Below, in pieces: positions 60,001-61,566 of a stretch of 61,566 bases of DNA (the first letter of the stretch is position 1; every line of letters begins with the position of its first letter). The stretch lies in the sequence record HG792104, one strand, 5' to 3'. The position numbers were made by a program. The DNA is from Escherichia phage P13771.

Positions 60001-61566
60001 GCAGAAAATCGCGCTTGCAGCTGTGGGAGCGGGTTATCTGCTTGGCTCGCTTAACCGCAGTGTTGCGGGGGAGGATGATGACGGGGTTAACTGGTATGAC
60101 AAGGTGCCGTCTCATGTGAAAGAGCGTAACCTCGTCATTATGAAATCGGTGTTCGGGGGCAAGGCCGGAGAGTACTGGAGTATTCCTCTGCCTTACGGGT
60201 ACAACGTTTTCTTCCTGCTCGGGCATACCGCTGAAGGTGTGGCGGCGGGTGACCTGACGGCGTCCCGTGCTGCCGGTAATGTTGTTGGTGGTGTGCTTGG
60301 TGCATTCAGCCCGATTGGCAGTGAGACGTCGGAAACACTGTCCGGGGCATTGCTGAAAAATGCAGCGCCGACCATTCTGCGTCCGTTTGCGAACCTTGCC
60401 ATGAATGAAAACTTCATGGGGGCGCAGATTTACCAGGAGAACATGCCGTTTGGTACACCAAAACCTGACAGCCAGCTGGGAAGACGTTCAACGCCAGAAG
60501 CGTACAAGGCGTTTGCATCCTGGCTGAATGCGTTCTCAGGTGGCAGCCAGTACCGTTCAGGCGCGGTGGATATCACACCGGAATCGCTGAAATACTGGGT
60601 GGACTATATCTCTGGTGGTACAGGGCGCTTCATTTCCAAAACCACGGATGCGGCGGTGAAATCGCTGAACGGTATTGATATACCGGAACAGCAGGTGCCT
60701 TTCCTGGGGAAAATTTCAGGTGAGGTGATGCCGTATGTTGACCAGCAGAAGATGTACGACCGGATGACAGAGGTTGCGCAGTATCACGCAGAGCTGAAGA
60801 GTCTGACCGGCGCAGAAAGAACGGCGTTCATTGACGAGAACAACGGAAAATTGTCGATGAACGGGCTTATGCAGGATACCCGGAAGAGACTGAAGGATTT
60901 GCGTAAACAGCGTGATGCCATTTACGCCGACAGTACTCTCAGTCTGGCGCAACAGTCGGCGATGGTGAAATCGGTAGAGCGGGATATGAAAATTGCCGTG
61001 GATCGGTTTAACCGCGAGTACAACAAAAAAGTGGGAGTGGATTAACAGAAATGGCCCCGTACGGAAGTGCGGGGCTAATGTGATTGGGGAGGGTGAGGAT
61101 ACCTGACACATCAGAGGTGGCGAGGGATTCCTCCCTTGCAGAGGTCTTTCTTCGTTATCAGTGCCGTCACAATGACGGTAATACAGAGATGAGCAGGGTG
61201 ATTAACATCGCCTTTTGCTGCTTTCATTGCATTTCTCCCGCGATAGCTCAGGCGTATTTGTCAATATGCAGAAATATTGATGAACGAATGACGGTAAATA
61301 CCCTACCCAGAAAATTAACGTAAATTCACATCGTAAACTTGCGTTAATTATCTGAAATATATACTTAAATCCCCTTAAATCTTTGGGGCGCTATTGGGGC
61401 AAAGTGTGGTTGTTTGGGGCATATTTGGGGCAAAAAAGAACGTATAAAGAACGGTGTAAAATCGATTTCTTTATGGTCAAAATGAGGTCTAACATATTGA
61501 AAAGTATATGCTCTTGGACGATCTTCGGTAATTCTGTGTTTTTAATGCTTCATGGTTTCAACATGT

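Follow-up and report, generated by a model that had tools for sequence, protein, structure and literature searches.

In phage lambda, the phage attachment site attP is laid out for a heterobivalent integrase (Int), with arm-type sites P1, P2 and P'1-3. Among the phages that carry Shiga toxin (Stx) genes, the closest described systems are 933W and the Sakai prophage Sp5 (VT2-Sakai), both of which sit in wrbA of Escherichia coli. Their attachment site in wrbA, with its 7-bp core GTTTCAA, has been described and annotated before: the core is marked as 'attL core' (1-7) and 'attR core' (last 7 bases) in the 933W record AF125520, as 'attachment site' in AP004402 (Stx2 phage I) and as 'duplication due to insertion' in LC645427. 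Here we analyze record HG792104 of Escherichia phage P13771, a stretch of 61,566 nucleotides that we refer to as the window, and in particular its two ends, where an initial annotation had proposed an attachment core flanked by integrase arm-type binding sites with the motif (T)TGGGGCA. We conclude with considerable confidence that these ends constitute the attP of an Stx2a phage of the 933W/P13374 type, that the phage integrase recombines attP with the bacterial site attB in wrbA at GTTTCAA, and that the repeats on the two sides of the core are its arm sites.

The window shares with 933W and Sp5 the same GTTTCAA, the same position in wrbA, the int-xis module, a colinear P arm and the flanking host genes. 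The 933W record ends at the 7-bp core, while the window repeats 12 bases. Over the whole genome, the closest relatives (99.1-99.6%) are found in the P13374/phiON-2011/P14437 group (Oslovirus), the members of which have the same start and end points. The likeness to lambda attP and Int includes a probable 7-bp overlap with putative inverted core sites, arm repeats that are unlike the core and occur on both sides of it (at about -130 to -175 and +70 to +85, about one helical turn apart), the location of int beside the P' arm with xis upstream, and an N-terminal arm-binding domain. The window is unlike lambda in its motif (GGGRCA), in the strict pairing of the repeats, in the location of the P' sites inside the int frame and in the type of arm domain (PF12167, IntBPP-1); no convincing consensus for integration host factor (IHF) was found. 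Prophages of the Rac type (IntR) in Enterobacteriaceae have integrases that are 63-71% identical, the same DUF1233 excisionase, GGGRCA pairs in both arms and a 24-bp box 21-22 nt from the core. They differ from the window in their core and host target, which is ..GCAGTTAA.. and not GTTTCAA, and in that some of their sites read GGGACA.

Phage identity, the 7-bp core and its wrbA target

At both ends and over 50 kb of its interior, the window is 99-100% identical to Stx2a-converting phages of the 933W/P13374 group, the best-matching record being P14437 (HG792105; 99.6% over the first 25 kb of the window). The first and last bases of the P14437, P8983 and P13374 records coincide with those of the window; therefore we conclude that it is one complete phage of this group, as the initial annotation had supposed, and that its circular genome was opened at the attachment site. 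Open reading frames for the A and B subunits of stx2 are located at about 24.5-25.8 kb; a lambdoid genome of about 60 kb that carries stx is one of the marks of the wrbA-integrating 933W-type Stx phages. The 12-base sequence GTTTCAACATGT, which had been reported at both ends, indeed occurs exactly twice, at 1-12 and 61555-61566 (0.02 occurrences expected; 0 of 100 shuffled sequences reached two).

Junctions between phage and host were read in lysogens. In LC645427, attL is ..gcgtgccatc-GTTTCAA-catgtctaagg.. (host then phage) and attR is ..aatgcttcatg-GTTTCAA-tatgtccgtacatgg.. (phage then host); phiON-2011 likewise has host-GTTTCAA-CATGTCT at attL and phage-GTTTCAA-TATGTCC at attR. The attR junction is identical in four E. 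coli chromosomes (O104:H4, a bovine isolate, O26 and O157:H7) and the attL junction in one IMG/VR prophage contig, and the uninterrupted attP, ..ttcatg-GTTTCAA-catgtct.., is seen in circularly permuted phage records. Joining the host flanks rebuilds an attB, ..gccatc-GTTTCAA-tatgtcc.., which is uninterrupted and annotated as wrbA in 5129 of 5426 complete E. coli genomes. Read along the wrbA strand, GTTTCAA corresponds to nt 44-50 of the 597-nt wrbA coding sequence, in codons 15-17. The neighbors of the prophage in the O104:H4, O26 and O157:H7 chromosomes are ymdF and rutG.

The phage and the host differ at the bases directly on both sides of GTTTCAA (g/c at -1, c/t at +8); therefore the common core is 7 bp long. 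The initial annotation was right about the location of the attachment site at the window ends, for which the lysogen junctions and the annotated 933W core are the evidence, and its suggestion that the 5' end of wrbA is the 933W target is confirmed by the same junctions together with the annotation of attB. The check that it had suggested, an alignment to wrbA and to the att of 933W, returned the same 7-bp core at the same wrbA position. Its core of 12 bp, however, is too long, since identity between phage and host is limited to the 7 bp.

In attP an inverted CATG lies on each side of the 7 bp (CATG-GTTTCAA-CATG), an arrangement that would fit core-type integrase half-sites around a 7-bp overlap. 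The host sequences opposite the putative half-sites C' and C are TATGTCC and GTGCCATC, respectively, and the half-sites C, C', B and B' share only CAT beside the overlap.

Insertion of the phage splits wrbA after codon 17, and a 19-codon wrbA stub remains at attR. At attL (LC645427; window 1-60), an in-frame phage ATG gives the peptide MINHILRHVET fused to WrbA from residue 18. This fusion, which is probably inactive, has no obvious ribosome-binding site and is without the first beta-strand and the flavin mononucleotide (FMN) loop. A different junction was observed in IMGVR_UViG_2700989510_000008, where a 933W-type P arm runs, a little downstream of the conserved 24-bp box (Table 1) and directly after ..gcttcatgG, into unrelated DNA (..aatggacatggtag..) that replaces GTTTCAA; insertion at a secondary site or a rearrangement may explain it.

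Paired repeats in both arms of attP

Copies of TGGGGC(A/G) on the plus strand start at 61384 (TGGGGCG), 61395, 61415, 61426, 72 and 83. All six have the same orientation, are grouped as pairs spaced 11 bp and span -174 to +85 from the core center (Table 1); the pairs of the P arm form a repeat family, D1, with a 22-nt unit and a spacing of 31 bp. TGGGGCA is not enriched across the whole window (10 copies vs 10.3 expected). With the genome treated as a circle, 6 of the 13 plus-strand copies of TGGGGC(A/G) fall inside 271 of 61554 bp around the core (binomial P = 1.2e-11), and the largest cluster per 300 bp contains six copies vs at most three in 300 first-order Markov shuffles. The six copies of (T)TGGGGCA described initially are therefore present as a same-strand cluster, although one of them ends in G and not in A; the distance of 100-200 bp from the 12-mer given for them is correct for the four right-end copies (123-171 bp) but not for the two at the left end (60-78 bp). 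A seventh, inverted copy of TGGGGCA at 186-192 lies in a stretch that is conserved in the homologues examined, and because this stretch encodes the conserved integrase motif Q-M-G-H we interpret the copy as a coincidence of the coding sequence rather than as an arm site.

The number of pairs varies among close relatives. 933W (AF125520 61300-61670) and Stx2 phage I, which also show scattered P-arm substitutions relative to the window, have three TTGGGGCA pairs in the P arm, whereas two are present in the window and in the prophages of O26 and of O157 strain 3384. The difference is one 31-bp unit, and the copy number of the arm sites is polymorphic. In AP004402 the P-arm repeats are annotated as 'arrangement g', without a function.

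The integrase gene next to the P' arm encodes a protein with two Pfam domains, Arm-DNA-bind_2 (PF12167; residues 15-78, E 8e-26) and the catalytic domain PF00589 (residues 210-403, E 4e-17). The protein is about 99% identical to the integrases of 933W and related phages, and the int-xis region (window 1-1500) has 99.2% nucleotide identity to 933W. Integrases of Stx2a phages and of Gifsy-2 have been placed in the arm-binding IntBPP-1 subgroup, which is defined by PF12167 (Smyshlyaev et al. 2021, PMC8138268). A sequence search of the PDB with Int returned matches of the catalytic and core-binding domains to other tyrosine recombinases only, and no structure of the arm domain. The locus combines a core that phage and host share and that is duplicated at the prophage ends, an adjacent recombinase with an arm-binding domain, repeats in two arms that are unlike the core, and an adjacent excisionase gene, which are among the features of the attachment site of a lambda-type (arm-binding) integrase.

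Comparison with divergent relatives carries most of the argument for arm sites. Paired (T)GGGRCA is found in SaltyDalty, a Klebsiella phage, a Rac-like element and PHB10, the integrases of which are 47-68% identical, wherever the arm is phage DNA (the Klebsiella prophage record has host DNA on the side of the P arm). In these four relatives the pairs are retained in otherwise unalignable DNA and around differing cores; in PHB10 (47% identity) the arm motif is ATAGGGGCA. A P' pair is present at the matching position in 83 of 85 homologous int loci (47-71% identity). Among 40 distinct P' sequences, the information content of the motif is 1.85 bits, compared with 0.83 for the core-side flank and 1.36 for the coding flank. 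The PHB10 integrase stops earlier, so that its P' pair lies beyond the int stop in non-coding DNA; therefore the constraint acts on the DNA and not on the protein.

P arms were retrieved independently of the motif, by an exact-pattern scan of viral contigs for the 24-bp box that precedes the core (Table 1). The scan returned 75 loci on viral contigs with differing cores, 62 of them distinct, and arm-site pairs were always found upstream of the box. At least one pair lies at the equivalent distance from the box in 62 of the 62 distinct P arms, and at least two pairs in 55 of 62. We conclude that the TTGGGGCA repeats are very probably integrase arm-type binding sites, as had been proposed initially; this assignment is a reading of sequence conservation, namely of pairs kept in both arms across the integrase family.

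With respect to gene structure, the minus-strand int reading frame (29-100) crosses the P' pair, translated there as A-P-D-V-P-Q, and a mere 21 bp separate its end from the core. The tail that encodes the pair is poorly conserved. Because the reading frame of the PHB10 integrase is already closed ahead of the pair, the longer tail has the look of translation that continues across a DNA element.

Taken with what is known of lambda, this layout suggests the following mechanism. The tyrosine integrase would recombine attP with attB inside wrbA, its core-binding and catalytic domains recognizing the CATG-containing half-sites. Crossover would occur within the shared GTTTCAA, where the exact cleavage positions are presumed to lie, and strand exchange would insert the phage and split wrbA. 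The N-terminal domain (PF12167) would bind the arm sites, and each integrase molecule would thereby connect one arm site with one core site. Accessory bending proteins would fold about 270 bp of attP into an intasome, as in lambda, and the DUF1233 excisionase would direct excision.

A wider reading, to which we give about even chances, is that paired (T)GGGRCA provides the arm sites of the whole PF12167 subgroup (IntBPP-1, with 933W-, Rac- and Gifsy-2-like members), that an accessory factor binds the box 21-22 nt from the core, and that the wrbA lineage has in addition a hairpin similar to lambda sib (61308-61354). The consensus for the arm sites and the conserved box are probably a modest new annotation of a standard kind. 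The map that results for attP in a large and medically relevant integrase subgroup comprises a probable 7-bp overlap, six probable (T)GGGRCA arm sites and a conserved box, and it offers precise targets for mutagenesis or for the engineering of integration vectors. Exact boundaries of the Stx prophage and its wrbA target are useful for prophage typing and for the detection of occupied and empty sites, and prophage ends of this integrase family become recognizable from either arm alone.

Table 1. Features of the attachment region and adjacent genes in the window (offsets are relative to the core center).
Feature	Position	Strand	Remarks
Common core GTTTCAA, left copy; probable 7-bp overlap/crossover region	1..7	+	sole stretch identical in attP, attB, attL and attR
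Putative phage-side core-type half-site C' (CATGTCTAAGG)	8..18	+	proposed from symmetry; bases 8-12 complete the 12-mer
P' arm pair, TGGGGCA-N4-TGGGGCA	72..89	+	+68 to +85 (starts +68, +79); inside last int codons (A-P-D-V-P-Q)
int, tyrosine integrase with N-terminal arm DNA-binding domain	29..1363	-	Pfam PF12167 + PF00589
xis, putative excisionase	1392..1691	-	Pfam PF06806 DUF1233, E 3e-30
P arm distal pair, TTTGGGGCG-N2-TTGGGGCA	61382..61403	+	-174 to -157; starts -174, -163
P arm proximal pair, TTTGGGGCA-N2-TTTGGGGCA	61413..61434	+	-143 to -126; starts -143, -132
AAAGAACG x2 direct repeat (11-bp spacing) overlapping 8-bp inverted repeat ATAAAGAA/TTCTTTAT	61435..61474	+	D4, I7
Conserved 24-bp box GCTCTTGGACGATCTTCGGTAATT (also given as GCTCTTGGRCGWTYTTYRGTRATT)	61510..61533	+	21-22 nt left of overlap
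Putative phage-side core-type half-site C (AATGCTTCATG)	61544..61554	+	proposed as left half of CATG-N7-CATG symmetry
Common core GTTTCAA, right copy	61555..61561	+	'attR core' annotation on last 7 bases of 933W
CATGT, redundant copy of phage-side bases 8-12, not host flank	61562..61566	+	C at 61562 vs lysogen T

Competing readings of the repeats and of the record ends

Several observations weigh against the interpretation of the ends as an attP with integrase-bound arm sites. Covariation of arm-domain residues with the GGGGCA and GGGACA variants was not found: the domain hardly varies, and one and the same protein sequence is seen with either variant. Only PHB10, the most divergent relative and a single case, has both a divergent arm domain and an altered 5' flank of the motif. 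A scan of attP (-263 to +126) did not find a convincing IHF consensus between the arms and the core, its one match (-68 to -56) having one mismatch to WATCAANNNNTTR. Searches of the openly accessible literature yielded no published binding or recombination data and no published arm-type sites for 933W, Rac or DUF3596 integrases. A simple 7-bp overlap model also does not predict the intact wrbA of E. coli O157:H7 PNUSAE146744 (NZ_CP133130.1; extracted stretch 2501-2572), where the base adjoining the 7 bp is the C of the phage, so that WrbA I15V is encoded. This allele is a full-length perfect match in 1 of about 5166 E. coli genomes with an intact site. It may have arisen as a chance single-nucleotide polymorphism, or it may be the scar left by a prophage whose excision was resolved on the right-hand side of the mismatch. 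Finally, a DUF1233 excisionase lies beside int in all four divergent relatives tested, and its distribution matches that of the motif.

The last point bears on the alternative that survives best, although we consider it unlikely: the TTGGGGCA repeats might bind the DUF1233 excisionase, or some other accessory or host protein, and not the arm domain of the integrase. Direct repeats about 11 bp apart are typical of lambda Xis sites, and DUF1233 accompanies the integrase as faithfully as the motif does in every relative examined. Because all relatives carry DUF1233, co-occurrence cannot separate binding by the integrase from binding by Xis, and an attempt to exclude Xis through differences in excisionase family failed for this reason. 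The placement of the motif, however, points to the integrase. Directionality factors characteristically act on one arm, while this motif flanks the core on both sides, in six to eight paired copies at lambda-like arm distances. The arm domain of the integrase would otherwise be left with no candidate target, and the AAAGAACG direct repeat, the palindrome and the 24-bp box, all of which are restricted to the P arm, are better candidates for Xis or host factors.

It is far less probable that the 12-bp identity is a mere overlap from assembly or circularization that is uninformative about att, although part of the repeat does have such an origin. In every lysogen junction that was read base by base, the right-hand copy is GTTTCAATATGT, with 11 of 12 matches to GTTTCAACATGT, and in phiON-2011 the annotated attL has 13 bp, while attR is labelled an 'incomplete direct repeat'. 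The last 400 bases of the window differ from lysogen attR junctions solely by the C at 61562, which is T in lysogens, and a perfect match to these 400 bases was found in 0 of the 193 complete E. coli genomes that cover the stretch. Since lysogens carry T at this position and no genome matches perfectly, the terminal CATGT is a copy of phage-side bases that mismatches the host flank. That the C was instead taken from a variant wrbA of the host is unlikely, given the single occurrence of this allele among genomes with an intact site.

The ends of records in the group differ. Ss-VASD has a terminal overlap of 77 bp at the same place. The host T is found in the two proviral records, P13374 and phiON-2011, whose last bases are ..CAATATGT(C), and the phage C in P14437, P8983 and the window, whose last bases are ..CAACATGT. 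Part of the perfect 12-bp repeat is therefore a record convention: the circle was cut at att and a few of its bases were written twice. The record end duplicates the start beyond the prophage state at 61562-61566 only; the preceding 7 bases are the genuine duplication that flanks the prophage, and their position coincides with the phage/wrbA junction in many independent lysogens and with the att core of 933W. Because of the lysogen junctions, a terminal overlap is refuted as the full explanation. The initial annotation had named an overlap unrelated to att as the outcome that would overturn its reading; the overlap that we observe sits on the phage/wrbA junction itself. A separate peculiarity concerns P13374 (HE664024), which ends in ..CATGCGTTTCAATATGT with an extra C before the core that no other member has and that probably reflects an error in sequencing.

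Least probable of all is that the repeats have no function: the extra 31-bp unit of 933W does show that P-arm repeats undergo tandem duplication, and coding constraint could account for the P' pair, which encodes A-P-x-x-P-Q in the integrase tail, as it does for the copy at 186-192, but the hexamer is kept in non-coding P arms with unalignable surroundings, the PHB10 pair lies past the end of int, and the motif positions are better conserved than the coding flank.

Other elements of the P arm and a neighboring reading frame

Between the proximal arm pair and the core, the P arm contains two further elements (Table 1). The 24-bp box is conserved in the attPs of integrases that are 63-71% identical, whatever the core, and it matches no IHF consensus. 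At the position equivalent to 61435-61474, other lineages carry a different palindrome, CATATGAA..TTCATATG. The element at 61435-61474 with its palindrome (61444-61474) and the 24-bp box are candidate sites for Xis or host factors. Just distal to the distal arm pair, CTTAAATC is present twice with 10-bp spacing (61364-61381). Scans for promoters and terminators in 61000-61566 and an Rfam scan of 60500-61566 (E up to 1) returned nothing credible.

An imperfect 22-bp inverted repeat with a 3-nt loop is located at 61308-61354, just outside the outermost arm sites. The RNA in the sense of int folds at -24.3 kcal/mol (z = -5.3). No equivalent was found in more distant attPs, outside the wrbA lineage. 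By its position the hairpin resembles lambda sib/tI and, by analogy, it might be cut off from int on integration, although this suggestion is speculative. Relative to the 933W hairpin, an A-T pair has become G-C through compensatory substitutions on both sides, and a T-G wobble has become a C-G pair.

Further from the core, a 38-codon open reading frame on the minus strand (61111-61227) corresponds, by annotation in related chromosomes, to a frameshifted or partial toxin of the Hok/Gef family.

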